DNA from: a virus
IMG/VR virus record: IMGVR_UViG_3300028192_000001
Coordinates: 1 to 64,000 of that record
Length of the DNA: 64,000 nucleotides
Direction: 5' to 3' (one strand)
In this document: in pieces, positions 9,290 to 41,332 of the stretch
Numbering within the stretch: the first letter of the stretch is position 1
Layout: the number at the start of each line of letters is the position of its first letter
Notes under the pieces: generated by a model
Databases searched by the model: none
What the model saw: the letters and a program-made list of their open reading frames with translations, nothing else
What the model was told of the DNA's origin: nothing
Made by a program: the position numbers and the translations under genes

Positions 9290-9605
9290 ATACACCTGGG
9301 TCACTCTTACTAAAGATTTTATTCAAGAGTGGCCAGAGGTATTAGACGGAATTAATTTTAACAACCTACCAATATTCTATGTTAAATGGATTAATATCCG
9401 TTTAAAAAATAATGTTACATTACATTATGACATTGAAAAAGAATTAAAAATGAAACCTCGAAGTAGAATAGCCAAAATGGTTACTGGAACATTACATAGC
9501 CATTATGCTAATATTAAAAACGTTAATATTAAATTTAATATACCAAAATTAAAAAAAGATATTGAAGAAAGAACTTCAAACTTTTTAAAAAAATCTTTTA
9601 TTTAA
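9261..9605 (+). CDS. hypothetical basic protein
   Basis: 114-aa ORF; last gene of the + block, convergent overlap with the 9598 gene. Confidence 0.7.
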   Translation: MPKKVPKKPKYTWVTLTKDFIQEWPEVLDGINFNNLPIFYVKWINIRLKNNVTLHYDIEKELKMKPRSRIAKMVTGTLHSHYANIKNVNIKFNIPKLKKDIEERTSNFLKKSFI

Positions 9606-10221
9606 AATTACAACTTATTGAGACTCGTTCAACTTGAGATTTATATGGATAAACCATATGTTTAAGATCTGATGGAAATAACCATACATCTTTTTCTACA
9701 GGCGTTTGATTAAAATATGTTTCACTAAAATGAATACTTTCACCATATGTCCATTGTATTTTACCGGCAGTTGGTTGATTACTGACTTTACAATGCTCTG
9801 CTTCTAAATTTTCTTGACTTATTTCTTTTGGTACTTTTAAATAAGCAACAAACGATATTATTCCTGCATGAAAATGACTCGGGTTCCATTCTCCGTGTTT
9901 CATGAAATTTACCCATATAGGTTCAACTATTTGTACATCTTGTATTTTTGGTCTTCCAAACTTTTTTATTTTTCTTCGTATTTTAGATTCAGTCATGTAT
10001 GTTTTTGCAAGATTTATAAATTCGTCATGCACAGTACTTTGTTCAGACGATGTAAACTTTAATGCATATCCTTCGGCTATATTTCCTGCAAGATGATTTC
10101 TAAAATCTTGGTCCATATTATAACGTGTAGAGTTTGATACTTTTAATAATATATCAAATACATTATCAGATAAAACCCCTCGCATTAATAAAGGACCAAA
10201 TGGTGTATAAAACTGATTCAT
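9598..10221 (-). CDS. 2OG-Fe(II) oxygenase-like protein (TIGR02466-type)
   Basis: WVN...NPSHFH, SFVAYL, LFPSDLKHMVYP, RVSISCN (HxH...H plus RxS). Confidence 0.75.
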   Translation of the reverse strand: MNQFYTPFGPLLMRGVLSDNVFDILLKVSNSTRYNMDQDFRNHLAGNIAEGYALKFTSSEQSTVHDEFINLAKTYMTESKIRRKIKKFGRPKIQDVQIVEPIWVNFMKHGEWNPSHFHAGIISFVAYLKVPKEISQENLEAEHCKVSNQPTAGKIQWTYGESIHFSETYFNQTPVEKDVWLFPSDLKHMVYPYKSQVERVSISCNFK

Positions 10222-10226
10222 TTACT

Positions 10227-11552
10227 TTAACTCCAAGGAAAAGGACTATTAGAAGTAGGATGTAGTTCACCTTTAATATATCGATTAAATCTAAATGGCT
10301 TAAGAAGTGAATTTTCTTGTCCTAGAATCTCATCTGAAACAAGGTCTCCAACTCCTATCATTTTATAACCGTGGTTAGAGTCAGCAATTATATAAACGTT
10401 TTCACAAAAACGATCAAAGATAGGAAATGAATCTGGTGTGAAACATCCTAGTCCACCTGATGGACCTTTTTCATATAAATTAGCCTTTCCTTCAAACCTC
10501 TTTTGACAATGTGCTAGAGCAGAGGTCCACATATGAGCAAATTCGTATCCAGTTTGATAATGCTTTGAAGCCGTTCCATATGGATCTACTTTGACATCAT
10601 TAAAAAGTTTCTTTACTATATAAGGAGCGGTACCACCTTGTACACCTTTAAAGTTAAAGTCTGGTTTATAATATATGCCCCACATTTCATCTGTAATTAA
10701 AGAACCATCAACACTTGAAAATAAATGAGCATTACTATCTACATGAATTACTGGAGGCATTCCACCATCATTGTTTTTTAATAAATTAGGATCAACACCT
10801 AAAACTCCTTCTTGTAAAAACCAATATATCCACATTGGGTAATCTTTATATGTTTGTCCTTTTTCAGATTTAATTGTAATTTTACTAGGTAGTTCAAGCA
10901 TATTCCAAATATCTCTTACCCAAGGACCAACACCTACAATAACTTGTTCACATTCAATTGTACCTTTAGAAGTTATAACACCTGTTACTGTATTACTATT
11001 ATCCTTTTCAAATCCAATGACTTTTGTATTTGTTATAATTTCTACACCAAGACTTTCTGCTTTACGTGCCAACCCATAAATCGATGGTGTAGCATTTGCA
11101 TATCCACCTCTTTTTTCATGTAACACAGATGTAATACCTTTGGCTTGCCAGTCACTAAAAATAGTTTTCATATATTTCATGCAGTCATCTCTACCCTCAA
11201 TAAATTCTGATTCGTACCCTAATTCTTTTTGTTGTTCGTAAATTGTTGTTATATTTTCTCTCATACTTTCAGGACTTATCTGCATATAACCAATTGGATG
11301 ATAATGAAATGCTTTTGGATCACTCTCCCAAACTTTTACACTATGAGCCATAAGTTCTCTCATAGCAGGTTGGAAATAATTGTTTCGAATTACACCACAA
11401 GCAATACCACTTGCTCCTGAGGCAATATCGCTTTTATCAATAACTACAATATCTTTACCCGATTTAAGTTTTTCTGCTAATTTCCATGCTGTACTTAAAC
11501 CATGTATTCCGGCTCCAATGATTACGTATTTTGCTTTTTTTTGTAATAACAT
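10227..11552 (-). CDS. FAD-dependent oxidoreductase, sarcosine oxidase beta / N-methylglutamate dehydrogenase MgdA-like
   Basis: IIGAGIHGLSTAW, GASGIACGVIRNNYFQPAM, FTPDSFPIFD, DSNHGYKMIGVG, C-terminal SNSPFPWS. Confidence 0.8.
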   Translation of the reverse strand: MLLQKKAKYVIIGAGIHGLSTAWKLAEKLKSGKDIVVIDKSDIASGASGIACGVIRNNYFQPAMRELMAHSVKVWESDPKAFHYHPIGYMQISPESMRENITTIYEQQKELGYESEFIEGRDDCMKYMKTIFSDWQAKGITSVLHEKRGGYANATPSIYGLARKAESLGVEIITNTKVIGFEKDNSNTVTGVITSKGTIECEQVIVGVGPWVRDIWNMLELPSKITIKSEKGQTYKDYPMWIYWFLQEGVLGVDPNLLKNNDGGMPPVIHVDSNAHLFSSVDGSLITDEMWGIYYKPDFNFKGVQGGTAPYIVKKLFNDVKVDPYGTASKHYQTGYEFAHMWTSALAHCQKRFEGKANLYEKGPSGGLGCFTPDSFPIFDRFCENVYIIADSNHGYKMIGVGDLVSDEILGQENSLLKPFRFNRYIKGELHPTSNSPFPWS

Positions 11553-11553
11553 T

Positions 11554-12282
11554 CTAAATATAATTATTTTCTAAATAATCAAATAATTTAATATTTGGTT
11601 TCCACCCTATATTCAATAAAAATTTGATATTTGCTTTATTATTAAGTCTTTCAAAATTATCACCAATTTTATATTCTATATTTTTTAAACCTACATGATC
11701 TACTATATCTGTTAATAAATTAGAATCTCCTGTACCTACATCACAAATGCCTACTAGATTACTACGCAATACTTTTATTATTGCATCACATACATCATTA
11801 ACATGAATAAAATCTCTTGAATGATTAGTATTAATATAACGTACATCATGATTTAATAATTTAGGAATAAACATTGATTCTCTTGCGTTAGGACCATACA
11901 CCGTTGTAAACCTAAGTCCAATACTACTTGCTGGAGCAAGTTTTTCCATGGTCATTTTTGAATATGCATAAGGATTTTTATCTGGTTCTTCAGCAGTACT
12001 AGAACTTGCGTAAATTATTCTTGCGTTTTTATATTTTTCAAATATGCGTAAACTTGCTATAACGTTATTTTGAAAATATGCGTTAGGATGTTTTATACTA
12101 TCGCGTACACCTGAACGCCCTGCTAAATGTATTACTGCATCTACATCGTCAGGTAGTTCACAAGTGAGTAAATCCTGACCGTCTAAAATATCAATAGTAG
12201 TAACATCATAATCCTTTTGTAATTTTGGCAATAAGTTTGAACCAATAAAACCTTTATGACCAGTTAATAATACGTTTTTCAT
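11554..12282 (-). CDS. NAD-dependent NDP-sugar epimerase/dehydratase
   Basis: TGHKGFIG, HLAG, YASSS, YAYSK, RFTTVYGP, RDFIHVND. Confidence 0.85.
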   Translation of the reverse strand: MKNVLLTGHKGFIGSNLLPKLQKDYDVTTIDILDGQDLLTCELPDDVDAVIHLAGRSGVRDSIKHPNAYFQNNVIASLRIFEKYKNARIIYASSSTAEEPDKNPYAYSKMTMEKLAPASSIGLRFTTVYGPNARESMFIPKLLNHDVRYINTNHSRDFIHVNDVCDAIIKVLRSNLVGICDVGTGDSNLLTDIVDHVGLKNIEYKIGDNFERLNNKANIKFLLNIGWKPNIKLFDYLENNYI

Positions 12283-12644
12283 TTATGTCTTGCTCCTTGT
12301 AATACACAAACAAAATATAATTCTTCTTCATCGCTGGGATTATAAACTTTATGAAAAACACCATCTTTTATTAAAACAATGTCTCCAGGTTCAACAGAAA
12401 ATTTATTATCATCTAATTGCATTTTACCTTGTCCGTTAATAAAAAAATAAACTTCCTCCTGTCCTTTATGGTTATGTCCTGTTGTTTCTTTTCCAGGGTT
12501 AAGACGTGTACTACTTAATACTAAATTTTTTAAAGTTATATTATCTTCGACTATATAGCGATCATCTTGTTTTACGATTTTACCATTTACTTGAAATTCT
12601 GGTATTTGTTTAGTGTACCAATTTTTATTACCAGTTATTTTCAT
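12279..12644 (-). CDS. cupin domain protein
   Basis: GHNHKGQEEVYFFING...PGDIVLI..GVFHKVYN. Confidence 0.85.
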   Translation of the reverse strand: MKITGNKNWYTKQIPEFQVNGKIVKQDDRYIVEDNITLKNLVLSSTRLNPGKETTGHNHKGQEEVYFFINGQGKMQLDDNKFSVEPGDIVLIKDGVFHKVYNPSDEEELYFVCVLQGARHK

Positions 12645-14104
12645 TATAATACACTTACTCCATATTTGTAGGTAAATGCATTGGCATCTTCGATATCATT
12701 TACCATGGGCATACCCTTGATATTCAAACTTGTATTCAATAGCATTGGGCACCCAGTTTTCTTTTTCCATGCTTTTAATAACTCATAAAACCCTTCGTTA
12801 TCGTTTTTAGAGACGGTTTGCACCCTAGATGTGTTATCATAGTGTATAATGGCTGGACAGTCTTTACCATGCGTGTACGCCGCTGTAAATTGCATATAGG
12901 GGGTGTTTTTTATAGGGGTTGGGAGTTCAAAGTAGTCATTTACATCTTCTTCTAAGATGGCGGGAGCGAATGGTCTAAACTTCTGTCTTCTCTTAATTCG
13001 GTTTACCATATCCTTAATTTCCACTCCTCTTGGATCAGCCAAAAGCGATCTATTACCAAGTGCTCGTGGTCCGAACTCTGCTTTACCATTTGCAACTCCT
13101 ACTATTTTGTTTTCTGTTAATTCTTTTATAATTGCATCTACAGGATATTCACCTTTAATATTATGTCCTAAGAATGGATTTTTCCAATCTAAATGTTTCT
13201 TTTGCGATGCCGCGATACAACCTAATGAACTTCCTGCATCTCCTGGATTTGGAATAATCCAAATATTATCAAACAAACCCATTTTAGCAAGTCCTGAGTT
13301 TGCTACACAATTTAATGCAACACCACCAACATAAACTAAATTTCTACTACCATACTTAGATGCTTTATGCCATAAATTTGCAAGACATTCTACAAGAACA
13401 GATTGTATTGATGCGGCAAGGTCAACTGGATCTGCTCCGGCGTGCCAATTACCTAATCCTCTATGTAAATTCTTTTTTGATTTAAGAGGATTTTGCTGTA
13501 CAAAATCTTCATATATATCATCTTTATAATCATCGTTTCCATATGCCGCCATACCCATTAAAATATATTCCTCTTCTGCAGGTTTTAATCCACAACGTTG
13601 TGTAAATGCAGAATATAATATTCCTAATGAGTGCGGATACCTTATAGTTTCTTTCCGTTCAATTTTATTTCCTCTTGCAACTGATATAGATACTGTATCC
13701 CATTCACCAATTGCGTCTACTGTAAGAATTACTGCTTCATTAAATGGTGATGTAAAATATCCTGCCGCGGCGTGTGAGTCATGATGCTTAACATATTCAT
13801 CTATTTTAATTCCAAACTTGCCTACATGATGTTGAGGCATTTCTGTATAATCAAAAGCAATACCATATTGTCCAGCATATAATTGTCTTGTTTTCTTTAA
13901 CAAAGGTTTTTCATAATACACTACCTTATCAAATGGTCCAAATGTATTTGCTTCGTTAACAATTTCTTGATTTAAATATTGATCATTTTTAATTTTGGAA
14001 TAACGTTCTGCATGAGCGGCCCATAGAATATCTCCTCCACCGTCAATGTCTACTACTGCCATTGCGGCATCATGATTCATACAATTTATTCCGAGTATTC
14101 TCAT
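12644..14104 (-). CDS. carbamoyltransferase, NodU/CmcH family
   Basis: HDAAMA, ERYSKIK, HHDSHAA, DAIGE, GGVALNC, GDAG, EFGPRALGNRS, FRPFAP, LNTSLN. Confidence 0.92.
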   Translation of the reverse strand: MRILGINCMNHDAAMAVVDIDGGGDILWAAHAERYSKIKNDQYLNQEIVNEANTFGPFDKVVYYEKPLLKKTRQLYAGQYGIAFDYTEMPQHHVGKFGIKIDEYVKHHDSHAAAGYFTSPFNEAVILTVDAIGEWDTVSISVARGNKIERKETIRYPHSLGILYSAFTQRCGLKPAEEEYILMGMAAYGNDDYKDDIYEDFVQQNPLKSKKNLHRGLGNWHAGADPVDLAASIQSVLVECLANLWHKASKYGSRNLVYVGGVALNCVANSGLAKMGLFDNIWIIPNPGDAGSSLGCIAASQKKHLDWKNPFLGHNIKGEYPVDAIIKELTENKIVGVANGKAEFGPRALGNRSLLADPRGVEIKDMVNRIKRRQKFRPFAPAILEEDVNDYFELPTPIKNTPYMQFTAAYTHGKDCPAIIHYDNTSRVQTVSKNDNEGFYELLKAWKKKTGCPMLLNTSLNIKGMPMVNDIEDANAFTYKYGVSVL

Positions 14105-14105
14105 T

Positions 14106-14210
14106 TTACTTGTATATAAACGGGTCTTTCTTCTTTAATTCTTTAATACGTTTTCTATAAGCAATTTCATGCTTTATCTTTGCAAATAAACGTTTTATCC
14201 AATTAAACAT
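14106..14210 (-). CDS. small basic peptide (34 aa) ending DPFIYK (not in ORF track)
   Basis: MFNWIKRLFAKIKHEIAYRKRIKELKKKDPFIYK*; AAAGGAGAG RBS; stop 1 nt before the carbamoyltransferase ATG. Confidence 0.75.
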   Translation of the reverse strand: MFNWIKRLFAKIKHEIAYRKRIKELKKKDPFIYK

Positions 14211-14264
14211 AATTCTCTCCTTTTGTTGTTATTTTATAATATATTTGAGCCGAACACAATATAT

Positions 14265-15374
14265 TTAAACTTCCTTTCTTTTTGGTATCTTACTATCGGC
14301 ACTAGATACACACGATTCGGTAATACATTTCATTGGTTTATTGTATAATTTAAAACCAGTTTCTATATTACCTAATGGTACATCACTACAACTATAACTT
14401 CGTTTAATACTACCATCCGGCTCTCTTATTATAATTCCTTGGTATCCACTATTACATAACCATCCTTTAAATTTATTAAAATTAAATGCGTTAAATCGTT
14501 CTGCTTGATCCATATACCATTTTTTACCTTTACTATCTTTAAACTCTACTTGAAAATGTGCGGGAACTGATATATCATTTTCTTCAATATCATGTGGCAT
14601 TTCAAATTTTGGTTTTGGTCTGGTGACATACTTACGTTTTGATTCTGTATATGCTCTTTGTGGCATTCCGTTATACAACTTATCAAGCATTTCTTTTGAG
14701 TACCCATCTACAACTTTACTTGCAGTAGGATCTGATTGCGGTTTAAGAGTTACATTAATACCTTGTTCATGAAAGAATAAAGCATTGTCATAATACTTGT
14801 TAAATTGTTCTGGTACCATAACCATATTAATTGTTACCTGAACATCATGCTCCTGACAAAGAATTAACTTATCAGCAAAGTCTTGCATTTTTTCTTTGGT
14901 GTCCAAATGCTCTGTATGTAAACTTGCAGTAACTGATGCTCGATGAAATGGTTTTGCATATTCTACATACGTTTTAAACCATTTCATATTTCTAGAACAA
15001 TTACTTGTCATATGTATTGAAGTATAATTTGTACTCTCTACATCATCCGCAAGGTATTTTAAAATATCTAAATACCCAGGGTGAAACGTTGGCTCACCAC
15101 CACTTAAACTAAAATGAAAACTATTAAATCCATTTTGTCTTGCTTGTTTTTTTATTTCATCAATAGTACGAAGACAAAGTTCTGTTGGTCTATGATCTTT
15201 TTTATCTGACCTAGCATATGGCCAACAATAACTGCAACGGTAATTACAAAATCTACCAAGCAACCAACTAACAGTAAACAAATCACGATAAAGTAATGTA
15301 CGTTGACCTACTTGAACAATATCATCAAATGGTATTTTTTTAAAATCATAATCACTCCATTTTAAATTGTTCAT
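14265..15374 (-). CDS. radical SAM protein, C-terminal SPASM/twitch-like domain (class B)
   Basis: CNYRCSYC, SGGEPT, FKGWLC...C...CITESC. Confidence 0.88.
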   Translation of the reverse strand: MNNLKWSDYDFKKIPFDDIVQVGQRTLLYRDLFTVSWLLGRFCNYRCSYCWPYARSDKKDHRPTELCLRTIDEIKKQARQNGFNSFHFSLSGGEPTFHPGYLDILKYLADDVESTNYTSIHMTSNCSRNMKWFKTYVEYAKPFHRASVTASLHTEHLDTKEKMQDFADKLILCQEHDVQVTINMVMVPEQFNKYYDNALFFHEQGINVTLKPQSDPTASKVVDGYSKEMLDKLYNGMPQRAYTESKRKYVTRPKPKFEMPHDIEENDISVPAHFQVEFKDSKGKKWYMDQAERFNAFNFNKFKGWLCNSGYQGIIIREPDGSIKRSYSCSDVPLGNIETGFKLYNKPMKCITESCVSSADSKIPKRKEV

Positions 15375-16537
15375 ATTACTAACCCTTTATACTTCTCATC
15401 TAAATATCTTGTTTGTCGTAAATCCATAGGATCTGTACATCTAAACTTTTCACATATTACTGGTGTGGTTGGTAACTGAACTGACTCATCTAATGTATAA
15501 ATGTTTGCCAATGGGCCTCCTTGAAAACAATTACCAATAAAAATATCTCCATTGGGGGCAACTTTTAATAAGGTTACACCAGCATAACAAGTCCATCCTT
15601 TAAAATTTGTTTTATATTCATAATTCAAACTATTATAATGATATGATTCTTGTTTAATTGTACCATCATCTTGTTCTACATATCCTAACAACCATTTCCT
15701 TTCTTCATTTACATCATCATACATTTTTTGTAATACTTCTCTATCATCTTCGTTATACCAACGTTCTTCTCTTTCATATATCTCGGTAGGTTTACTTGAA
15801 TTTGTTTCATCTGGTGCAACTTTAGTTTTCTGATTTACTTCTTTTACACTTGGTTTAGTTTTCCATCTATAATTTCCTTTGTCTGTTTTAATCTTACTTT
15901 CTGCAACAAACATATCTTTTTGTGGACGAATTACTCTATGTTCAATTTTTTCAATACCCCAATCTTTAAATTGCTGTGTTAGTTCGGCAATCTCTTTTGA
16001 AAACCCTGGCAGTACCATAAATCTAGCAACCAATCTTTTAGGTTGAGTTTGGCCTAACTCCCATCCATATTTGTCTTCGGGTATATTTTTATTCCACCAC
16101 CTTCTCCATCTTTCTAATTCATATGCTTTTTTTGTAAATTCTTCGAGTTTTGGAGTAATATGTTCAAAATGTAAACTGTATGTAATATTATCAACAAGTT
16201 TATACATTGACCACAAGTACTCTATTGTTCTACTACCGTTTGTACAAACAGAAATTTCATATTTTTTATCTTGCAAATACTCTAATAATTTAATAAAGTC
16301 TGGATTAAGTGTTGGCTCACCTCCAGTTAAACTCCAATGAATATTTGTGCCATATCTTTCTACAATTTTATCTACAAAAATTTTCATCTTTTCAAACAAT
16401 ACGTGCTTTGAATAATTGTCGTGTATAAAATCAGCACAATAAGAACAAGCAAAATTACATCTTTTGCCTATATACCAATCTATCATCATGGTATTTCTTT
16501 TATTATGTTTATATTTTGTTGCTACTAATTTCGTCAT
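15371..16537 (-). CDS. radical SAM protein, C-terminal SPASM/twitch-like domain (class B)
   Basis: CNFACSYC, TGGEPT, TNGSR, FKGWTC...C...CEKFRC; start taken as ATG 16537 (MTKLVA). Confidence 0.88.
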   Translation of the reverse strand: MTKLVATKYKHNKRNTMMIDWYIGKRCNFACSYCADFIHDNYSKHVLFEKMKIFVDKIVERYGTNIHWSLTGGEPTLNPDFIKLLEYLQDKKYEISVCTNGSRTIEYLWSMYKLVDNITYSLHFEHITPKLEEFTKKAYELERWRRWWNKNIPEDKYGWELGQTQPKRLVARFMVLPGFSKEIAELTQQFKDWGIEKIEHRVIRPQKDMFVAESKIKTDKGNYRWKTKPSVKEVNQKTKVAPDETNSSKPTEIYEREERWYNEDDREVLQKMYDDVNEERKWLLGYVEQDDGTIKQESYHYNSLNYEYKTNFKGWTCYAGVTLLKVAPNGDIFIGNCFQGGPLANIYTLDESVQLPTTPVICEKFRCTDPMDLRQTRYLDEKYKGLVI

Positions 16538-18840: not shown

Positions 18841-18842
18841 TA

Positions 18843-27748: not shown

Positions 27749-27813
27749 AATAATCCTGAGTTATTACAACCTAATCTTATTGCAAGATTAAAGATTTTTT
27801 TACTCGTTTGTAT

Positions 27814-32076: not shown

Positions 32077-32863
32077 TTTCTTTTATATACTTGTATACCT
32101 CCATTGCAAAAATATCTTGACCTTCCTGACCTATATGATGATTCCGATTCCAAACAGTAGAAGAATCATTAGTAAATCTATCGTAATAACAACCATCACC
32201 CGCACCTCCCTTATAAATTCTTTTTATATTAAGCAGTTTATAAAGTCCAAGTAATCTTTTATCTTTTTTAATTGTTTTTATAGCAAATGGAAACAACATA
32301 TTAATGAAAAGATATGGAACTTCATGTTTTTCCAAAAAAGATTGTAACGTAAAATGTTGTAATAACATTCTATACTGTATTTCTGTCCATTTACCCCAAT
32401 CTGTTTTAAGTAATTCTTTATACATTATTTCGTGTTCTGGTTTCATTGGTATACTATTACGAGATTCTTTTGCACCAATCAACCCAGGAATAAACATATA
32501 ATGACCAGCAACGCCTCTATTAATGACAAAAGGCTTTCCTGGATCATCTGATTTTAAAAATAACCTATCTGCACCTGTCCACCCGATTATAACAAAAATG
32601 TTTGATTTATTTTTTGCTTCATTTATAAATCTTATTGTGTGTTCTAAGATATGATCATTACTGGACCCTGGAACAGCATTGTTTATAATCTTTAATATTC
32701 CTAACTTTCTTCCTACATTATTTGCCCATGAGTCATAATAGCATTTAGCAGGTATCTCGGTAAGTCCAACATCTTGATCGAAACAATTTTTATTGTCTTC
32801 CCAAGATTTTAATTCACTCCCGGCAGTATGACTACACCCATGAATAAAAAAATTTTCTATCAT
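32057..32863 (-). CDS. SGNH/GDSL-like protein
   Basis: HGCSHTAG, NNAVPGSSND, IIGWT..DR, NHHIG; ATG 32863 overlaps the upstream TGA. Confidence 0.6.
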   Translation of the reverse strand: MIENFFIHGCSHTAGSELKSWEDNKNCFDQDVGLTEIPAKCYYDSWANNVGRKLGILKIINNAVPGSSNDHILEHTIRFINEAKNKSNIFVIIGWTGADRLFLKSDDPGKPFVINRGVAGHYMFIPGLIGAKESRNSIPMKPEHEIMYKELLKTDWGKWTEIQYRMLLQHFTLQSFLEKHEVPYLFINMLFPFAIKTIKKDKRLLGLYKLLNIKRIYKGGAGDGCYYDRFTNDSSTVWNRNHHIGQEGQDIFAMEVYKYIKENDLLLR

Positions 32864-33837
32864 ATTTTTTCTTTTGTTATTAATACATCTGATGCACAAT
32901 GACATCTATTTCTTTTACAAATAACTGAAGAAGTAGGCCATATAATTTGATCTGGTTTATTAATATCACCTATTGCCCCTTCTTGCATACAATTAGCCAA
33001 ATAAACTTTACCTGACCATTGTATAAAAAAACTTTCTAACCCCAGATTACATTTCCATCCTTTAAAGTTAGATTTTCCTGCATTAATTAATTCTTGCTCT
33101 CTGCCGTATGAATTTATAACTTCACCGTCTGCAAAGTGAATATCTGATCTATCATCAATCTTCTGTGTAAAATATGTTTTAACACCAAGTTCATTTGTTC
33201 TTTCTATACCTGTTGTAGATGTATACTCCTTAAACCATTTTAACTGTTCTTCTGTATAATGGTGACCTTTACCTCTTTTAGTCCATTTTAAAACTTTTAC
33301 TGCTTCTACTGTTATATTTTTATGCGGTTTACAAGATTCTAAAAACTTTAATCCTTTATCCCAAAATCTCCCATCCATCATTACTCTAAGATTTATTGGT
33401 GTTATATTAGCAATTGATAATGCTTTTTCTAAGAAGTCTTTATCTTCATAACTTGGATGATAACTTGCACTACAATATGCTAGATACGGAGCAAGAGATT
33501 GCATATATCTTGATGTCCTTGCAAGGTTTGTTGTTATGCCAACTTTATTACCAGCATCATGAATCATTTTACAAAAGTCTAATAAAAAAGGACTTAATGT
33601 AGGTTCGCCCCCTGATATTGCTACTTGCAATTTGTCATACTTTGAAAGTAATGTTTGCCAAAATTGTTTTGCATTACTCCATTCATAATTATGATTACTA
33701 CCATTATGTAAACTTGTCGGACAATATTCACAAGCATTGGTACAAATATTATTAATAACCCAAGTGATCAACATTAAGTTATTAGTTCGTCTTTGTATTT
33801 TTACAACTGGACTTTGATTATCTTTCAAATTTCTCAT
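32860..33837 (-). CDS. radical SAM protein, C-terminal SPASM/twitch-like domain (class B)
   Basis: CTNACEYC, SGGEPT, TTN, FKGWKC...C...CKRNRCHC. Confidence 0.88.
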   Translation of the reverse strand: MRNLKDNQSPVVKIQRRTNNLMLITWVINNICTNACEYCPTSLHNGSNHNYEWSNAKQFWQTLLSKYDKLQVAISGGEPTLSPFLLDFCKMIHDAGNKVGITTNLARTSRYMQSLAPYLAYCSASYHPSYEDKDFLEKALSIANITPINLRVMMDGRFWDKGLKFLESCKPHKNITVEAVKVLKWTKRGKGHHYTEEQLKWFKEYTSTTGIERTNELGVKTYFTQKIDDRSDIHFADGEVINSYGREQELINAGKSNFKGWKCNLGLESFFIQWSGKVYLANCMQEGAIGDINKPDQIIWPTSSVICKRNRCHCASDVLITKEKI

Positions 33838-35143
33838 ATGCTTCTTCGTAAATGCCTGGATACATTTTTCTCACATCTTCCAATTCCGGAATAACTGCAA
33901 ACACACTCTCTTTTCTAATTTTATCTAATTTTGCGTGTTTGTTTAAAAATAATCTAGCATACGCAGGATTATGAGGTAATGTTAGTCCGTGCATAATTTC
34001 TTTTAATTTAGGTGTTGGATCGTATTCATATTTTTCTTTATAATCTTCAATCCAAAACTTATATCTTTCTAATATTTCTTTTTTAAATTTGTCGCTTAAA
34101 ATTGTTACGTGTTGATCTTCTGGCCAATGAACAAAATTCAAAAACCAATTATTGTACTTTACTTTCCAGGTATTGGTAGTTACAGCATAATTGTCATGTA
34201 CCAATCCCATTTTAATAAAATGATCTATTATAGCAGGTAATCTAAAAACATTTAAAGCACCTACAGTTATACCAGGCTGTATATGAATGCTCTTATTCAA
34301 ACCGATAAGAGTTTGAATATTTTTTTCTACCCTTGACCAAACTGTGCCTGATCTTACAAGTTCTGCTCTTTCACCGAATTCATCTAAACTTGGCCATATT
34401 TCAATCTTACCCGGCTCCCATAACTTCCAATAATCTAAAACACTTTTTCCTTTATGTTCTAGTTTTGTTGTATTGGTATTATACATTATTCTAACATCAA
34501 AACGTTTATGCTTTTTAAGTAATTCTAAAATATACCAATGATCGTCCATCATCATTGGTTCTCCACCAGCAAAATAAATTCTTTCTACGTGCTGTATTTG
34601 ATCTTCTAGAAATGCTAACTTTGATTGCCCATCAACTTCTTGTACAACATTTAATCCTTTTTTATTTTGTCCATATCGTTTTTTACCCCAAATTCTAATT
34701 GCATCTGGTACCCAAGAAGAACTATGCTTTGGCCCACAACTTCTACATTTTAAATTACAAATATTACTAAACCTCATATCCCAATATTTTAATCTCATCT
34801 CAGGAACCGTACCATCAGGTAATGTAATATGCTCTACTTCTTTCATTACACTTTTATATGATTTGTTATTATGCTGTCTATTGCTGGTCATTCCTCTATC
34901 TTCCATATTCCAGCATCTAGTACAAATTTTAGAACGTTCTCCAGAAAGCATTTGAAGCCTTAACTTCTTTTGCTTCTCACTATTCCATATATCTTTGATA
35001 GAATCTTTGCTTAAATCACCTAAATTATAATTATAAGGTGAAGTTAAACAACACGGTATAACCTTATTATGTGGTTCAAATTGTAAATGAACCCAAGGTA
35101 TAATACAAAAACTTTTAGATTTTTTAAGATCATCATATTTCAT
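33818..35143 (-). CDS. N-terminal twitch domain radical SAM protein (class A)
   Basis: FCIIPW...PCC...CTRC, then CNLKCRSC, AGGEP, SLDE. Confidence 0.88.
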   Translation of the reverse strand: MKYDDLKKSKSFCIIPWVHLQFEPHNKVIPCCLTSPYNYNLGDLSKDSIKDIWNSEKQKKLRLQMLSGERSKICTRCWNMEDRGMTSNRQHNNKSYKSVMKEVEHITLPDGTVPEMRLKYWDMRFSNICNLKCRSCGPKHSSSWVPDAIRIWGKKRYGQNKKGLNVVQEVDGQSKLAFLEDQIQHVERIYFAGGEPMMMDDHWYILELLKKHKRFDVRIMYNTNTTKLEHKGKSVLDYWKLWEPGKIEIWPSLDEFGERAELVRSGTVWSRVEKNIQTLIGLNKSIHIQPGITVGALNVFRLPAIIDHFIKMGLVHDNYAVTTNTWKVKYNNWFLNFVHWPEDQHVTILSDKFKKEILERYKFWIEDYKEKYEYDPTPKLKEIMHGLTLPHNPAYARLFLNKHAKLDKIRKESVFAVIPELEDVRKMYPGIYEEAYEKFER

Positions 35144-35176
35144 TACTAATATTTAACGAAAATTAAGTACGTAGAT

Positions 35177-36103
35177 TTAGTTTTTTTTAACTATAAAACT
35201 CTCAACGCCTCTAATTGGGTTTTGATATACTTGTTTAAAAAACTTACTCTGTGTTGCTGTTAAAGGATTAATACCAATCGGGATTTCAACCTCATTAACT
35301 AATATTTCTCCTAACCTTTTTATTTCGTCTTCAATATTATTTGAATTAAATTTTGCTGACTGTTCTTCCCACATATTATTCAAATACTTAAAATCTCTTG
35401 TATGAACGATATCCCAATCTGTACACATTGTCATATATGTTCCTAGCCTAGCACCATAAATTGCCCATATTCCATTCTCAATATCGCTACCAACCATTTG
35501 CCAAATATACATTCTGTTTAAATTTTTCCAATGATTTTTTTTAAAATCGTTGATGTTAACTCTAACTCCTCTATCTAACGACATTTTAACACCTTCTCTA
35601 AATCCTGCTCTCCAAGACTGTGCTGGTGTATAATTATTATACACATCACTATACGTCTGATTTGTTTGAAGATATCTAATGTCCCAACAAAAATCTATCT
35701 GTGAGTGAGGATCATTGGGATCAGCATTTTCATGAGTTTTCATATCTAAAACATATTGCTTTGGCCAACATTTAAGTCCACCATTTCCATAAATTAATCC
35801 ATTTACAACATTATATCCACACCAACTAATAACACTATTGGCTAAATCTGTTTTTTCATCAAACTCAATTTCAACATCAAGCCATTTTGGATTAATAATA
35901 TTATCACCATCTACTGTTGTAAATCTTTCTGTCTCTGTTTGTTCTGCACAGGCTTTATGTGCCGCATCTGACCCTTCTACTCCGTGGACTCTTTTTACCC
36001 ATGGAATCTTATTACAAATGTCTGCATAATTCTTTTCAGCATTTGGTTCATCATAACTTAGATAAAAAACATCATGGTCTCTTACATAAAATTTCTTAGT
36101 CAT
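35177..36103 (-). CDS. glycosyltransferase-like protein (GT-A, DxD)
   Basis: DVFYLSYDE, VDGDN, YGNGGLKCW, WRAGFRE; paralog of the 28737 gene. Confidence 0.6.
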   Translation of the reverse strand: MTKKFYVRDHDVFYLSYDEPNAEKNYADICNKIPWVKRVHGVEGSDAAHKACAEQTETERFTTVDGDNIINPKWLDVEIEFDEKTDLANSVISWCGYNVVNGLIYGNGGLKCWPKQYVLDMKTHENADPNDPHSQIDFCWDIRYLQTNQTYSDVYNNYTPAQSWRAGFREGVKMSLDRGVRVNINDFKKNHWKNLNRMYIWQMVGSDIENGIWAIYGARLGTYMTMCTDWDIVHTRDFKYLNNMWEEQSAKFNSNNIEDEIKRLGEILVNEVEIPIGINPLTATQSKFFKQVYQNPIRGVESFIVKKN

Positions 36104-36644
36104 TTTCTCTCACGTGATAATAATCGTTATATATTTTTTTACAAAACACACTAATATTTAAGTTTACTGACTCAACATCTTCAATTTCATACTTTTCTTT
36201 TAATAAATCAATTTTTAATTCATTATGTAATAGATTTGGATTATCTTTTCCGGTAACATAAAACATTTGATACAAATTTTTATTAGAAATAGTTTTCAAA
36301 GCATTTAGAATATCTCCTTGTACTACAAGTTTCCATTTTCTTCTTTTTATGTCTTGAACTAAATTAATACCGTCTTGTACTTTTTCTACTACAGGTATTT
36401 GATATATTGTATGAGATGCTGGTGTTTCATTTACACTTTCTTCTAAATTTCCAAATCCTACTTCATTAATAACATATTTTTTTAACTTATCGTCATATAC
36501 TACTAAAAATTGATTTAAACTTTTTGTTCCGTTTTTAATTTCATTAGAAAGAGTATCGTCAATTTCTATACAAGTTCCTTCTTGCGTAGGTCCTACTGTT
36601 AGAGGAACTCCTGACTCTGATTTAAACTGCAAGTACTGTTTCAT
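36096..36644 (-). CDS. hypothetical protein
   Basis: 182-aa ORF overlapping neighbours. Confidence 0.7.
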   Translation of the reverse strand: MKQYLQFKSESGVPLTVGPTQEGTCIEIDDTLSNEIKNGTKSLNQFLVVYDDKLKKYVINEVGFGNLEESVNETPASHTIYQIPVVEKVQDGINLVQDIKRRKWKLVVQGDILNALKTISNKNLYQMFYVTGKDNPNLLHNELKIDLLKEKYEIEDVESVNLNISVFCKKIYNDYYHVREND

Positions 36645-37461
36645 TTGCTTCTTCTAATTGTTTTATTAAATAATCTGTTAAAAATCCTTTTTCAACATAA
36701 TGTATTATTCCATTTTGTTTATAGTTTCCAATATAAAAATTATTTTTACTAAAATTTAAAGTAACTGCTGTACTTGATTTTACATAATCAAATTTCCATC
36801 CTTGGTGTTTTGGTTTTAAATGAACTACATTTATAAAAGAATCTTTTGCTGTAATTTCATCTTCATTACATAAAAGTTTTGATGTAATAGCAGAACTAAC
36901 ATCCATACTACACCATTTTTGTTTTTTCGTTGGTGTATATTTGTCATAAAATAATTTCCAATTCTCAATAACTAATCGTTGCATTCTATAAAATAATGCC
37001 GCTTCTTCCGATTTCTCAAAATAATGTATTGTATTATATAAATTTGGCAATTGATTTCTAACAAACACTTTTCTATATACAACAGACCTGTCAATTACAC
37101 CTCTATATGTTCTAATAGCAGATGAATAAAAAATCATATAATTTTTTAAATATTTCCACCAACCATCTAAATTTTCAGTTACTAAAGTATCAGCATCTAA
37201 TACTATTGTTTTCAAATATGGTGAAATATCAAATGCATTTATTCTGTCTTCAGCATTTAATATACTTCTTGGTTGAATTTTATTAAAAATTACATCATCA
37301 AGTACTTTTTTATATCTATCACTTACTTCTGTGTTTGTAACAACTGTAATATGGGCATTTGGGTTAAACAATTTAATTGATAATCCTAGAGCATATGCTT
37401 GTTTTAGATAATTTGTTTTCCAAGTATTGTTTGCGTATATTAAAAATCCTTTTTCTATCAT
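36622..37461 (-). CDS. GT8-like glycosyltransferase
   Basis: YLKQAYALGLSIK, SPYLKTIVLDAD (DxD), VVHLKP. Confidence 0.65.
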   Translation of the reverse strand: MIEKGFLIYANNTWKTNYLKQAYALGLSIKLFNPNAHITVVTNTEVSDRYKKVLDDVIFNKIQPRSILNAEDRINAFDISPYLKTIVLDADTLVTENLDGWWKYLKNYMIFYSSAIRTYRGVIDRSVVYRKVFVRNQLPNLYNTIHYFEKSEEAALFYRMQRLVIENWKLFYDKYTPTKKQKWCSMDVSSAITSKLLCNEDEITAKDSFINVVHLKPKHQGWKFDYVKSSTAVTLNFSKNNFYIGNYKQNGIIHYVEKGFLTDYLIKQLEEANETVLAV

Positions 37462-38312
37462 ATCCCTTGTCTTTCAATTAGTTGTTCTAATCCAATCTTA
37501 TTCATTACATGAACATTTAAATCTTTAGTTGTTGCTACTGAATAATTTGAGTTGTCATTAGGAAGAGTACACAAAAAAGTAAACTCATCATCTTTAAAAT
37601 CTTCTACTAAATCTCTATCAAAAATATAATATAAACTACCAGGAGGGTTTGTTGGCCAGTGTGTACTACTTTCAAAACCATTCATAATATGAATAGCAAT
37701 ACTAAATGCAAAATCGTTTCTAAAATTTCTCCCTGATATTTGATATATCCATCTATAATAATTCCAATTTTCTTTTATGTACTTTAATAACTCAAAAAAT
37801 GTCTCCATTTTTTTATTTTTTTTAAAATAAAATACAGTTGCCCAATACATTTCAATAGATGTATCACTAACATATCTTATCTCCCATGGTTTTCCGTATG
37901 GATTTATATAAAGAGAATCCTTCCAAATCATAAAATCATCATTTAATTTAAAACAATTTAATAATAAATCATTTCCTACAATATAATCAGTGTCCATAAC
38001 AATAGTTTCGTCATAGGGTGTTAAATTATATGCATCTGATCTATTAAAATTATTCCATTGTAATTTTTTTGAAACTTGTCTGCCATCACGAAAAGTTTTA
38101 CGTTGATATACTTGAATTTTTTCTGCAGAAATAACTTTATCAAATATATCAATTAAATGTGAATATTTTGTTTGTAAGTGTTTTTCAGAATCGGTTATTA
38201 ATGAAACTGGAAGATTTAAATGCTTTTTAATATGTTTTGCACAAAAAATCGCTTGCCTTACATAATCAATTTCATCATTGTTATTGGCAAATAATATTAC
38301 ACCTTTAGTCAT
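37458..38312 (-). CDS. GT8-like glycosyltransferase
   Basis: YVRQA, TPYDETIVMDTD (DxD), FRNDFAFS, VHVMNK; paralog of the 36622 gene. Confidence 0.65.
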   Translation of the reverse strand: MTKGVILFANNNDEIDYVRQAIFCAKHIKKHLNLPVSLITDSEKHLQTKYSHLIDIFDKVISAEKIQVYQRKTFRDGRQVSKKLQWNNFNRSDAYNLTPYDETIVMDTDYIVGNDLLLNCFKLNDDFMIWKDSLYINPYGKPWEIRYVSDTSIEMYWATVFYFKKNKKMETFFELLKYIKENWNYYRWIYQISGRNFRNDFAFSIAIHIMNGFESSTHWPTNPPGSLYYIFDRDLVEDFKDDEFTFLCTLPNDNSNYSVATTKDLNVHVMNKIGLEQLIERQGI

Positions 38313-38656
38313 CTTCCTAAAACGTCTTTAATATCTCTTTTTTTGATTTTATGTAATTGTGTATAATAATGATTTACATTTTTTGCATAAATGTTCATTA
38401 CATCATCAACAAACTTTGCAAAGTCTAATATTTGTGCAGGATTATCATTATCATCAATTATTGTGACGTCTTTAGTTTGCCCTTTTTGTAAAAGTAAATT
38501 AATAAAAGTTATAAATTCTCGATTAATTTTAAATTTTGAGCCATTAGCATAATGTACATTTTGATCTAGAAACTTTTGCTTTAAAATTCTCTTTTGGTTA
38601 TTGTATGTAACCATGTAATTGGAAAATTCCAGTGCTTTTTTTAATCGATCATCCAT
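38309..38656 (-). CDS. hypothetical protein, first gene of the modification island
   Basis: ATG 38656 (MDDRLKKALEFSNY), ATGA overlap with the next gene. Confidence 0.75.
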   Translation of the reverse strand: MDDRLKKALEFSNYMVTYNNQKRILKQKFLDQNVHYANGSKFKINREFITFINLLLQKGQTKDVTIIDDNDNPAQILDFAKFVDDVMNIYAKNVNHYYTQLHKIKKRDIKDVLGR

Positions 38657-38663
38657 GAGCACT

Positions 38664-38692: not shown

Positions 38693-38725
38693 GTAAGATA
38701 TGAATTTATCTTGATTAATTAACTA

Positions 38726-41329: not shown

Positions 41330-41332
41330 ATC

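Follow-up and report, generated by a model that had tools for sequence, protein, structure and literature searches.

What does an uncultured marine giant phage build with a 29-kb island of radical SAM (rSAM) and sugar-related genes lying directly behind its tail-fibre genes? The analysed window, 64,000 nucleotides of the IMG/VR virus record IMGVR_UViG_3300028192_000001, supports a phage-encoded island for sugar-related biosynthesis and tailoring that follows the tail module and contains unusually many intact rSAMs. Glycan assembly combined with radical tailoring is somewhat favoured as its function. The full best reading, a self-contained cytoplasmic pathway in which a glycan is assembled and then edited by radical chemistry, is held tentatively, at slightly under an even chance, and a virion protein as the acceptor is possible but doubtful. 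The first-pass annotation had proposed a tailored glycan on virion proteins; the sugar-related tailoring island behind the tail module stands, while the glycan on virion proteins is something we still infer.

The island (9598-38662, minus strand) forms one packed block of 29 ORFs of at least 80 aa, the threshold of the ORF list, which misses shorter ones; two more small ORFs lie in its gaps, one of them at 27814-28038. By coordinates, neighbouring ORFs overlap at 20 of 28 junctions, and just three gaps are longer than 10 nt (160, 276 and 33 nt). Preceding the island are a baseplate wedge protein (phrog_10646, E 3e-221), a 4304-aa protein and three fibre-like paralogs (PHROG). The earlier picture of about 30 co-oriented, mostly overlapping genes directly following the tail module, with no replication or nucleotide-pool genes inside, is borne out at this locus. 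Mis-assembly of a bacterial fragment is rejected by the continuity of GC and skew, metagenome coverage, a bridging contig and gene order in a cultured phage. The island has a GC content of 0.26-0.34, its flanks one of 0.29-0.38, and GC skew stays negative from the island into the tail module. Seven marine metagenome runs, which come from at least six studies and of which four may be the source sample, contain 91-99% of the island/fibre junction (34000-43900); one DNA contig spans 37253-38891 across the boundary, and the gene order recurs in the cultured phage RsoM2USA.

The boundary between island and tail module carries the following features.

38664-38692, minus strand: sigma-70-type promoter motif TTGACC-N17-TATACT, immediately upstream of 38309
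38309-38662, minus strand: first island gene, a small conserved protein (listed start GTG 38662; ATG 38656 is probably the true start)
38726-39631, minus strand: Gly/Ser/Thr/Ala-rich fibre-like protein, a short way upstream of the island promoter
39704-47235, minus strand: fibre module (PHROG tail fibre and virion structural matches, paralogy, Hint domains), with fibre-like paralogs 39704, 44276 and 45724, Hint-domain protein 42085 and 163-aa protein 41579

Of 12 usable related loci, 6 have the motif TTGAC-N16-18-TA.A.T at 17-26 nt ahead of the start codon, against a background of 0.68% of 133-nt windows. The contig has six T4-type TATAAATA late promoters, none of them in the island; the only TATAAATA of the window lies at 45721-45728, in the fibre module. 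Motif and conservation suggest that the island would be transcribed from its own host-type sigma-70 promoter before 38309 and not from gp55-type late promoters, an arrangement that, judged from these motifs, would count against a simple reading as part of the tail module. With a host-type promoter, early functions such as modification of DNA or of the host are at least as plausible as decoration of the virion. Hypermodification of phage DNA, in which a modified base would bear sugar, amino or carbamoyl groups, also agrees with the solubility of all island proteins, with the PLP, rSAM and FAD enzymes known in thymidine hypermodification pathways, and with a QueE-like gene in the window, which suggests some DNA modification by the phage. 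That gene, however, lies on the opposite strand in a separate gene group, Pfam finds no base hydroxymethylase, kinase, DNA transferase, TET/JBP or DNA-binding domain in the island, and the bacterial versions accompany UDP-glucose dehydrogenase and GT2/PMT_2. Partner genes may lie elsewhere, 91 kb of the phage genome being covered, and we rate DNA hypermodification very unlikely, the last of four alternatives.

The rSAM enzymes dominate the island. Pfam Radical_SAM matches 12 ORFs, three of them (18843, 25267 and 26663) under the gathering cut-off, and the CxxxCxxC motif is present in all 12, the sub-cut-off ones included, in agreement with the earlier count. They form three old paralog classes (A, B and C), of which class B comprises the six members of NCBIfam NF033640 (N-terminal twitch rSAM, uncharacterised; cut-off 170 bits, 18843 scoring 344). 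Five of the genes lie outside the variable segment described below and are listed here with one small core ORF.

33818-35143, minus strand: class B rSAM (NF033640, 347 bits against 170), with Pfam SPASM 13-78 ahead of Radical_SAM 124-236
32860-33837, minus strand: class A rSAM (Radical_SAM 32.3 bits, CxxxCxxC at residue 32), paralog of 14265 and 15371
26663-27748, minus strand: core class C rSAM, CxxxCxxC at residue 18, C-terminal Cys-rich domain, Pfam 23.2 bits (sub-cut-off)
25267-26670, minus strand: core class B rSAM, NF033640 408 bits, best conserved of the six
14265-15374, minus strand: core class A rSAM, among the best conserved island genes (up to 84% identity in relatives)
27814-28038, minus strand: small conserved core ORF of 74 aa (tblastn, 40 of 80 loci, 43-81% identity, full length)

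Counts of related loci were taken over 80 loci. Homologs of 25267 occur in all 80 (43-88% identity), in 585 confirmed viral stretches and in bacteria (52-56%), and those of 26663 in 68-76 of the 80. Homologs of 14265 are 59-66% identical in bacterial islands, where they adjoin the 25267 homolog, and no match was found in cultured phages. Class B keeps four invariant Cys in the twitch. Its six paralogs share 23-30% identity, each is closer to orthologs from other phages (49-88%), two have bacterial orthologs (52%), and the tree puts them in six separate places, so they represent distinct old functions and not redundant copies. The literature searched gave only a descriptive mention of such genes (PMC7029224), and the earlier statement that no characterised phage pathway has this many rSAMs stands. 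The nearest solved proteins to NF033640 by profile are generic, namely GDGT-MAS (1e-7), SkfB, MoaA and BlsE, with BtrN at only 0.02. We know of no characterised member of NF033640.

Twitch/SPASM enzymes modify peptides more often than sugars, and most characterised ones act on peptides. This, together with SkfB among the near solved relatives, a fibre-like gene immediately before the island and a bacterial sub-cassette without an adjoining glycosyltransferase (GT), speaks for a protein-maturation system in place of a sugar editor: the rSAMs would modify virion-protein side chains directly (fibre cross-links, epimerisation, formylglycine-type oxidation), and the transferases would add sugars separately. 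We consider it unlikely, though the first of the alternatives. Pfam detects no RRE/PqqD domain in the island, and a candidate precursor was not found; the sole small conserved ORF, 27814, which mostly sits between 28025-like and 26663-like genes, is conserved along its entire length and is thus unlike a RiPP precursor. The core is moreover accompanied by UDP-glucose dehydrogenase, and by GT2/PMT_2 in bacteria, and the fusion of PLP enzyme and rSAM suits small-molecule or sugar chemistry better.

Glycan assembly with radical tailoring draws on the transferases and other sugar-related proteins, listed here with the unassigned proteins among them.

37458-38312 and 36622-37461, minus strand: two paralogous GT8/glycogenin-like DxD proteins (family profile A3 against glycogenin, E 6e-5)
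36096-36644, minus strand: 182-aa protein present only in this phage, with no family match and no homolog in the 80 loci
35177-36103, minus strand: GT-A-fold DxD protein (BLAST E 2e-19 to paralog 28737, same invariant DxD)
32057-32905, minus strand: DUF6071 protein (E 1.4e-15, its only Pfam match); the earlier SGNH call for it is weak or unsupported
30562-32076, minus strand: 504-aa protein with only viral relatives (nearest Atlas clusters) and no Pfam match
29407-30561, minus strand: UDP-glucose/GDP-mannose dehydrogenase (Pfam UDPG_MGDP_dh and N domain above cut-off)
28737-29429, minus strand: core GT-A-fold DxD protein (AF2 pLDDT 91; Foldseek to GT-A glycosyltransferases, E 6e-5)
28025-28750, minus strand: methyltransferase-like core protein
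9598-14104, minus strand: carbamoyltransferase 12644 (N and C domains), cupin 12279 (Cupin_2), epimerase/dehydratase 11554 (Epimerase), FAD oxidoreductase 10227 (DAO) and 2OG-Fe(II) oxygenase 9598 (2OG-FeII_Oxy_5), all by Pfam above cut-off

The four DxD GT-A-like proteins of the first-pass annotation hold up, two as GT8/glycogenin-like by profile and two as GT-A-fold by model, and the Pfam matches confirm its UDP-glucose dehydrogenase, epimerase, cupin, carbamoyltransferase and 2OG oxygenase. The A3-glycogenin match spans the DxD, over 100 residues; Pfam gives no match for 37458 or 36622. By VIA, protein 28737 scores Z 11.4 against B4GALNT1 and about Z 11 against IspD nucleotidyltransferases; its homologs occur in 58-64 of 80 loci, and one of them, P0150 (57% identical), carries PF13641. 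The GT assignments are therefore remote, the modelled fold of 28737 matching IspD-type nucleotidyltransferases besides GTs. A possible extra GT, 30562, finds no support, its Atlas lead to GT10 (0.78) being at chance level and not significant. The methyltransferase call for 28025 is weak, with an Atlas lead to Methyltransf_31/PCMT/NAS only and no Pfam or PDB sequence match. In relatives, 35177, 28737 (+X) and 28025 are fused in one ORF, the 28025 domain following the GT domains in L056 and L045, and the 28737 domain is found in 1913 long proteins. Among the accessory tailoring genes in 9598-14104, the carbamoyltransferase alone is found again in relatives, at 12 loci.

The remaining genes occupy a variable segment.

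15371-25267, minus strand: variable cassette slot between conserved rSAM genes 25267 and 14265 (Pfam and NCBIfam)
Slot genes 1-4, in gene order: class B rSAM 24029, SDR-like 23458, permuted class C rSAM 22350, PLP enzyme 21523
Slot genes 5-9, in gene order: class B rSAMs 20309, 18843 and 17545, class C rSAM 16509, class A rSAM 15371

The spacing between 25267 and 14265 homologs runs from 47 nt to 8.1 kb in 28 relatives and is 9.9 kb here; the slot swaps cassettes in and out, diversifying the island. The PLP call for 21523 is upheld by an AF2 model (pLDDT 90) with Foldseek E 2.5e-10 to fold-type-I aminotransferases and an invariant Lys180, whereas the SDR call for 23458 is weak (23.6 bits, under the Pfam cut-off of 26.6). 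A class B rSAM lies directly downstream of the PLP gene in 7 of about 12 loci, and in a relative PLP enzyme and N_Twi rSAM are fused in one ORF.

These parts would fit a pathway in steps. UDP-glucose dehydrogenase, epimerase/dehydratase, cupin and SDR-like protein may yield activated sugars, from which four soluble GT-A-type transferases and the methyltransferase-like protein would assemble a short glycan on an acceptor that is itself soluble. The 12 rSAMs of three classes would then remove hydrogen atoms from sugar carbons that are not activated, with each paralog presumably responsible for a different step (ketone oxidation, epimerisation, deoxygenation or C-C/C-methyl chemistry). PLP enzyme 21523 may aminate or deaminate the position handled by a class B rSAM, following the same logic as BtrN/BtrS or DesI/DesII. 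Carbamoyltransferase, 2OG oxygenase and FAD oxidoreductase would complete the decoration, and cassette exchange between 25267 and 14265 would vary it. Twitch rSAM, PLP enzyme, NodU/TobZ-type carbamoyltransferase, FAD oxidoreductase, sugar-nucleotide enzymes and GTs together resemble the tailoring set of aminoglycosides and nucleoside antibiotics. The island might accordingly make a free aminoglycoside-like or nucleoside-like pseudo-oligosaccharide acting on host or competitors, in keeping with the all-soluble proteins and with a cassette that stands alone in a bacterium. This is improbable, third among the alternatives: the island has no exporter or self-resistance gene, the recurring position next to fibre genes in many phages would lack explanation, and the glycogenin-like GT8 pair weakly indicates a protein acceptor.

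Hundreds of phages from the ocean share the gene set, as do predatory bacteria and a single cultured phage of Ralstonia, RsoM2USA. RsoM2USA has a minimal, colinear module, with 8 of 9 positions kept in order (fibre-like, 38309, two GT8, GT-A, rSAM, GT-A, methyltransferase-like). Its gp354 shares 31% identity with 38309 (E 3e-12; family HMM E 7e-29), a gene with homologs in 13 related loci and no Pfam or PHROG match; gp353 and gp352 are homologs of 37458/36622, gp351 occupies the 36096 position without significant similarity, gp350 is 41% identical to 35177, and gp347 matches 28025 (E 7e-21). In another phage lineage the same core adjoins Fe-S scaffold, ClpP and DnaK genes and not fibres on the one side examined. 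Tail linkage is common, not universal: the linkage expected earlier is missing on that side from homologous islands of this lineage and also from those of bacteria, against eight loci and RsoM2USA that have it.

Bacteria carry the core without phage genes. The core and a sub-cassette of six genes recur in genomes from the same phylum as a Bdellovibrionales MAG, presumably Bdellovibrionota; in the MAG itself (G001) the sub-cassette is colinear as C-PLP-B-B-B-A at 34-62% identity. There it lies amid housekeeping genes with no GT nearby, so the rSAM/PLP cassette does not need co-located sugar genes. Bacterial core genes also co-occur with UDP-glucose dehydrogenase (a 29407 homolog in the G151 island is 50% identical), and one island adds two glycosyltransferases, a Pfam GT2 and a PMT_2 (GT-C), so that outside phages, too, the core is linked with sugar transfer. 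New here are the RsoM2USA module, the domain fusions, the cassette slot, the sharing with bacteria, the sigma-70-type promoter and the lack of membrane segments.

Remodelling of the host surface polysaccharide during infection, giving superinfection exclusion or keeping progeny from being trapped, has been proposed for the glycosyltransferase-rich 'host recognition clusters' of pelagimyophages, where cassettes of GT8, UDP-glucose dehydrogenase and radical SAM are noted (PMC7029224). The host-type promoter is compatible with early expression, and the GT2 and PMT_2 pair of the bacterial island is typical of lipid-carrier periplasmic glycosylation. Yet no membrane segments are predicted in any of the 29 island proteins, flippase, polymerase, ligase and lipid-carrier transferase are absent from the Pfam matches, and every product would need to enter host machinery; we place this explanation second among the alternatives and likewise regard it as unlikely.

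The lack of membrane proteins and the synteny of fibre-like 38726 here, in eight related loci and in RsoM2USA, where it resembles the C-terminal part of gp355 (E 4e-12), point toward a virion-protein target. We infer that the likeliest acceptor would be a virion surface protein, foremost 38726. As to the structural genes of the contig, gp55-type late promoters stand ahead of them, and contigs from two RNA libraries map on 38726 with 0-7 differences.

The phage contig is 91,252 bp long and the window covers its first 64 kb; several findings place this contig, as far as its sequence goes, among T4-superfamily-like jumbo myoviruses: the baseplate wedge protein (phrog_10646, E 3e-221) has its nearest cultured relatives in the jumbo phages SCTP-2, Phosso, Atu_ph07 and PA5oct at ~33% identity, and the contig also encodes a baseplate hub, a portal, a major head protein, a gp55-like late sigma factor and SbcCD-like genes. 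On the minus strand, the order runs from the wedge gene to a 4304-aa protein, a fibre module (39704-47235), the fibre-like gene 38726 and then the island, genes being named by their left window coordinates. The island extends from 38662 down to 9598 and comprises 29 ORFs of at least 80 aa, overlapping at 20 of 28 junctions and leaving only three gaps longer than 10 nt (counts from ORF coordinates). It ends near 9600, where plus-strand genes converge. Features of this layout are as follows.

47977-60891 (-), 4304-aa protein with FG-GAP_2 and CBM_5_12 matches
42085-44271 (-), glycine-rich Hint-domain protein of 728 aa in the fibre module, with Hom_end_hint, Vint and Hint matches at residues 437-540
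41330-41578 (-), 73-aa ORF between 41579 and 39704, with no match in related loci
14106-14210 (-), basic 34-aa peptide ORF between 14265 and the carbamoyltransferase gene, with a good ribosome-binding site and weak conservation in front of carbamoyltransferase genes in six loci

Twelve island ORFs match Radical_SAM (PF04055), nine above the gathering score and three below it, and all twelve carry CxxxCxxC, bearing out the twelve radical SAM (rSAM) enzymes counted by the first-pass annotation. All-against-all BLAST splits them into three classes.

Class A rSAM: 14265, 15371, 32860
Class B rSAM, with Pfam SPASM/twitch preceding the rSAM core: 17545, 18843, 20309, 24029, 25267, 33818
Class C rSAM: 16509, 26663, 22350

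Class B proteins carry SPASM at ~residues 5-100 and Radical_SAM at ~113-330 (Pfam), placing the twitch N-terminal to the core, with invariant cysteines C10, C28, C93 and C96 in the twitch followed by C149, C153 and C156. The NCBIfam NF033640 (N_Twi_rSAM) scan took in four of the six, all above the curated cut-off of 170 bits (17545, 310; 18843, 344; 25267, 408; 33818, 347) and with the twitch in front of the core, as in that family; the other two, 20309 and 24029, are clear paralogs (BLAST E 1e-22 to 1e-45) and share the Pfam order of SPASM then Radical_SAM. NF033640 is a catalogue entry without a known substrate or reaction, so membership says nothing on function; literature searches returned no paper on NF033640 or 'N-terminal twitch', and those combining jumbo phage with radical SAM returned nothing on this system. 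Against solved structures, the six-protein class B profile finds generic relatives only, with GDGT-MAS (1e-7) followed by SkfB, MoaA and BlsE, and BtrN matches at E 0.02, confined to the twitch segment. Classes A and C have no curated family above cut-off. Within class C, residues 239-269 of 16509, a Cys-rich C-terminal segment, can be aligned to residues 4-36 at the N-terminus of 22350, which supports a circular permutation in 22350.

Judged by their divergence, the six class B paralogs are old, sharing 23-30% mutual identity as against 49-88% to orthologs in other contigs. In a FastTree phylogeny of 113 family members, they occupy six separate places, and the tree mixes viral with bacterial sequences, its supported branches requiring at least 11-14 label changes. 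The rSAM gene 15371-16615 (-) is listed from a GTG codon, which gives a 107-nt overlap with the preceding gene and a hydrophobic N-terminal extension; the true start probably lies further downstream. A thirteenth rSAM gene, QueE-like (phrog_2076, E 7e-55), lies outside the island at 3-887 (+) beside exonuclease, ATPase and phrog_1314 genes, and hints at a 7-deazaguanine pathway in this phage.

The rSAM genes are accompanied by a tailoring set, of which a carbamoyltransferase, UDP-glucose dehydrogenase, NAD epimerase/dehydratase, cupin, 2OG-Fe(II) oxygenase, DAO-type FAD oxidoreductase and DUF6071 protein are clear by Pfam. The assignment of 12644 to the NodU/CmcH/TobZ carbamoyltransferases holds, both domains exceeding the Pfam cut-off (Carbam_trans_N, 147 bits against 24; Carbam_trans_C, 185 bits against 27), with the N-domain match beginning at profile position 130 of 346. 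The reading of 21523 as a fold-type-I PLP enzyme is likewise upheld by its AF2 model (pLDDT 90), which matches aminotransferases, serine palmitoyltransferase and S1P lyase in Foldseek (E 2.5e-10, TM ~0.6), and by invariant K180 and D152, K180 being aligned to the PLP lysine of S1P lyase; the Pfam Pyridoxal_deC match reaches E 0.27 only.

Four DxD proteins of GT-A type had been proposed from the sequence, and the proposal stands in part. For 28737 and 35177, the family model (AF2, pLDDT 91) predicts a GT-A fold with an invariant D62xD64, and its best Foldseek matches are all GT-A glycosyltransferases (E 6e-5; VIA Z 11.4). Because IspD/MobA nucleotidyltransferases reach Z scores equal to those of glycosyltransferases against this model, sugar transfer by 28737 and 35177 is a putative activity. 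No curated Pfam family HMM matches them among the window proteins; P0150, a fused database homolog (57% identical), has a precomputed PF13641 match. For 37458 and 36622, tentatively GT8-like, the evidence is a family-profile match to glycogenin-1 (GT8) in the PDB at E 6e-5, covering ~100 of 280 positions and spanning the invariant D107xD109, with no Pfam Glyco_transf_8 match even at E 5. Other early calls fared less well: the methyltransferase 28025 remains an Atlas lead, 23458 is SDR-like but below cut-off, and the possible extra glycosyltransferase 30562 is unsupported, its GT10 Atlas lead (0.78) being at chance level. Searching PDB sequences with profiles of the 28737/35177 and 28025 families yielded nothing usable, and ten unannotated proteins had no credible Pfam match at E up to 5; 30562, 36096 and 38309 have no assigned family.

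The class B alignment scan of viral contigs confirmed at least 585 related stretches, and window proteins were mapped onto the best 80 of these loci. The resulting backbone begins with the fibre-like genes (45724/39704, not always present), 38726, 38309, 37458, 36622, 35177 and, again variably, 33818, and continues through 28737, 28025, a small ORF, 26663 and 25267 to a variable set of rSAM and accessory genes, followed by 14265. The small ORF (27814-28038, 74 aa, below the ORF size cut) occurs in 40 of the 80 loci. Homologs of 25267 and 14265 lie 47 nt to 8.1 kb apart in 28 loci, as against 9.9 kb in the window; given this spacing, the interval is a cassette slot, its filling in the window being the largest seen against those 28 loci.

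Fusions tie several of these parts together. In two loci (L056, L045), a single ORF joins a 35177-like part, a 28737-like part, an unassigned stretch and a 28025-like part; in L014 the PLP enzyme is fused to a class B rSAM, and the PLP gene is directly followed by a class B rSAM gene in 7 of ~12 loci. The 28737 domain occurs in 1913 proteins of 404-2000 aa in a large protein database, including 35177+28737 fusions and arrays of a repeated N-terminal half-domain. Many long proteins (900-1800 aa; P0121, P0130, P0236 and similar ones) contain several tandem copies of just the DxD-bearing N-terminal half and end with one complete 28737 domain at the C-terminus. Among 50,697 phage records, megablast with the island gave no match, and tblastn gave none for 14265 and four remote matches only for 25267.

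The only close 28737 homolog among these records belongs to the cultured Ralstonia phage RsoM2USA (MG752970, 344 kb), whose genes gp355-gp347 are colinear with the window at 8 of 9 positions. The order comprises a fibre-like gene, a 38309-like gene (HMM E 7e-29), two GT8-like genes, a positional analogue of 36096, a 35177-like gene (41%), one N_Twi rSAM, a 28737-like gene (40%) and a 28025-like gene, the module sitting behind the baseplate wedge and giant protein (ORF361). It has one rSAM where the window has twelve, and it is without the class A and C rSAMs, PLP enzyme, carbamoyltransferase and 74-aa ORF that the window contains. The module genes were all annotated as hypothetical, and ORF361 was found in virions by mass spectrometry, in which only ten abundant bands were identified (PMC8504454). 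This nine-gene minimal version offers a practical handle, opening the question to phage genetics and mass spectrometry.

In bacteria, a Bdellovibrionales MAG (2.5 Mb) contains ten NF033640 genes, and the family occurs in 31 of 151 sampled genomes of its phylum (presumably Bdellovibrionota), with up to 11 scored copies, often in arrays. The MAG sub-cassette consists of class C, PLP (62%), 20309-like (52%), 18843-like (52%), 24029-like (34%) and 15371-like (59%) genes in the same order as in the window, flanked by housekeeping genes including SAH hydrolase and a sigma-54 activator, with no glycosyltransferase among the flanking genes scanned. The single 25267 homolog of the MAG is surrounded by transposases and a restriction-modification gene, a setting that says nothing on substrate. 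Two other genomes contain a core set of 25267 (54-56%), 14265 (59-66%), 28737 (37-40%) and a 26663-like gene, to which one of them (G151) adds 35177-like and 28025-like genes, UDP-glucose dehydrogenase (50%), a Pfam GT2, a PMT_2 membrane glycosyltransferase and a B12-type rSAM. From these contexts, the core is transferable as a unit and linked to sugar transfer, and transferases need not accompany the rSAM/PLP sub-cassette. In the bacterial genome G051, two FG-GAP/ASPIC-UnbV proteins (L110:16498-19062, L111:2992-5223) adjoin a homologous rSAM core; the link to the FG-GAP-bearing 4304-aa protein of the window may be a coincidence or may reflect shared acceptor-type proteins.

In two other phage lineages, Fe-S assembly genes directly precede the rSAM island (L065:802-1509, L017:5879-6741), an arrangement also found in L066, L068, L012, L014, L018, L022, L026 and L032. 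One lineage carries IscU (E 9e-58 to a solved IscU) with an IscA-like gene, and the other an NFU1-like (E 1.5e-23) and a DUF59-like gene alongside genes resembling those for ClpP, ClpS and DnaK; the calls of IscA, DUF59, ClpP, ClpS and DnaK are readings of N-terminal sequences. It seems that these phages supply their numerous rSAM enzymes with Fe-S scaffolds of their own; the 91-kb contig studied here has no scaffold gene of that sort.

Promoter signals separate the island from the structural genes. The T4-type late promoter TATAAATA is strongly depleted in the window, with one copy (45721-45728) against 17 expected. The whole contig has six copies, all located immediately before gene starts, and five of these genes are annotated or putative structural genes; the copies look like functional late promoters. 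Contig positions beyond the window copy, and of the sigma gene, are listed here.

64390, 70675, 78403, 89467 (minus strand), TATAAATA copies
89964 (+), TATAAATA copy
70731-71810, gp55-like late sigma gene

No copy of the late promoter lies in the island, the nearest upstream one being at 45728, ahead of the fibre gene 44276. The 63-nt spacer ahead of 38309 contains TTGACC-N17-TATACT, and in 6 of 12 usable related loci the start codon follows the same motif by 17-26 nt, against a background of 0.68% of windows (chance of recurrence ~1e-10, binomial estimate). Generic sigma-70 and terminator scans gave counts equal to shuffled sequence, and only this conserved site was retained. Since a conserved sigma-70-type site precedes 38309 and the island has no late promoter, it appears to form a separate transcription unit served by the host holoenzyme.

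Taken together, the island reads as a soluble pathway in which a glycan would be assembled and then tailored by radical chemistry: the DxD proteins would transfer sugars, the rSAM enzymes would act on sugar carbons, and the PLP-rSAM pair would, by analogy, work as BtrN/BtrS or DesI/DesII. No 19-residue window of any island protein reaches a hydropathy of 1.6, apart from the doubtful N-terminal extension of 15371, and the island encodes no predicted membrane protein. The acceptor is the most conjectural element; a virion protein is favoured because of the gene position and because lipid-carrier machinery is absent, 38726 being the candidate. Four rival readings are alive, because of the host-type promoter, the lineage with the core beside Fe-S scaffold and chaperone genes, and the bacterial versions. 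Under the first, the rSAM enzymes would modify a protein directly; Pfam finds no RRE or PqqD in the island, and the only conserved small ORF, 27814-28038, is evenly conserved along its whole length without a variable core, so that a small-ORF RiPP precursor was dropped, though distant RREs or precursors encoded elsewhere may exist. Host-surface remodelling is set beside the finding that no Pfam family for Wzx/Wzy or ABC parts (initiating transferase, flippase/transporter, polymerase, ligase) is present in the island. DNA modification is set beside the absence of any base hydroxymethylase/TET, kinase or DNA transferase from the island and the annotated parts of the 91-kb contig. The fourth rival, a free metabolite, shares with the others the three observations that sustain them all.

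Among characterised systems, BtrN/BtrS and DesI/DesII each pair, in sugar tailoring, a twitch-type rSAM having one auxiliary cluster with a fold-type-I PLP enzyme, and the island pair resembles them in being adjacent in several loci and fused in one relative. In contrast to BtrN, the class B twitch is N-terminal rather than C-terminal, and in contrast to DesI, 21523 is short (275 aa), its nearest folds being amino-acid aminotransferases rather than DegT/DesI-type sugar aminotransferases; the likeness is one of analogy, not membership. Chlorovirus PBCV-1 encodes its own virion glycosylation machinery, including the multi-domain enzyme A064R, and Freeman reportedly described capsid and tail glycosylation in mycobacteriophages in 2023. 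The island shares with these systems soluble virus-encoded GT-A-type transferases near structural genes, and its relatives encode multi-domain GT-GT-methyltransferase-like polypeptides comparable to A064R. Virion-protein glycosylation is established in those viruses, whereas for the island it is a proposal; we know of no radical SAM enzymes in either system. Pelagimyophages, ~150-kb T4-like phages, have a hypervariable 'host recognition cluster' in the structural region beside a giant protein and tail fibres, described at annotation level only, with radical SAM cassettes noted descriptively (Zaragoza-Solas et al. 2020, PMC7029224). The window phage differs from them in its baseplate, nearest to the jumbo phages SCTP-2, Atu_ph07 and PA5oct, and the rSAM sets are likened by description.

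The class B domain order (NF033640) and fibre-side rSAM cassettes in pelagimyophages (PMC7029224) were already known. With its 12 rSAM genes and 9.9-kb cassette filling, the island of the window is among the largest versions; further additions are the colinear minimal module in a cultured phage, the fusions, the colinear bacterial sub-cassette, the conserved promoter and the small core gene. Radical SAM enzymes perform chemistry otherwise hard to achieve, and here single genomes keep up to a dozen intact copies of NF033640 and two further rSAM classes, which recur in at least 585 viral contigs, in marine metagenomes from 2011-2025 and in 31 of 151 sampled genomes of one bacterial phylum. A product decorating fibres or the host surface would bear on host recognition or exclusion evasion by large ocean phages; a small molecule or DNA modification would represent a new class of phage-made compound. 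A bolder proposal, which we consider rather unlikely as a whole, is a modular 'radical glycan editor', in which soluble transferases would glycosylate receptor-binding fibres, exchangeable N-terminal-twitch and other rSAMs would rewrite individual sugar carbons on the protein-bound glycan, and cassette exchange between phages and with predatory bacteria would diversify virion surface chemistry. If true, it would mean a new rSAM substrate class and a further level of phage-host specificity among abundant ocean phages.

Near-identical DNA recurs, with half or more of the sampled words of 34000-43900 found in 17 marine runs dated 2011-2025. Mis-assembly of the island was rejected on base composition, on the recurrence of its junction with the fibre genes in metagenome runs and on a bridging DNA contig. 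In two metatranscriptome runs, contigs fall chiefly within 38726-47255 (0-7 differences on 38726, 0-17 on the other fibre genes); 28000-38600 has only three short pieces, 28316-28527, 29337-29619 and 29978-30213, the last with 21 differences and from a diverged relative. Since these are contigs and RNA libraries can contain DNA, they show presence only, and the thin cover of the island is no evidence on its expression. Contigs of a DNA run join window 40714 to 46663, skipping 5.9 kb at a depth of 177 with 12 other letters between (span 40714-46667); in two RNA-library runs, contigs connect 41020 with 45465. Each of these joints falls within the fibre paralogs 39704 and 45724, so that population variants apparently lack the intervening genes, probably through recombination of the two paralogs.
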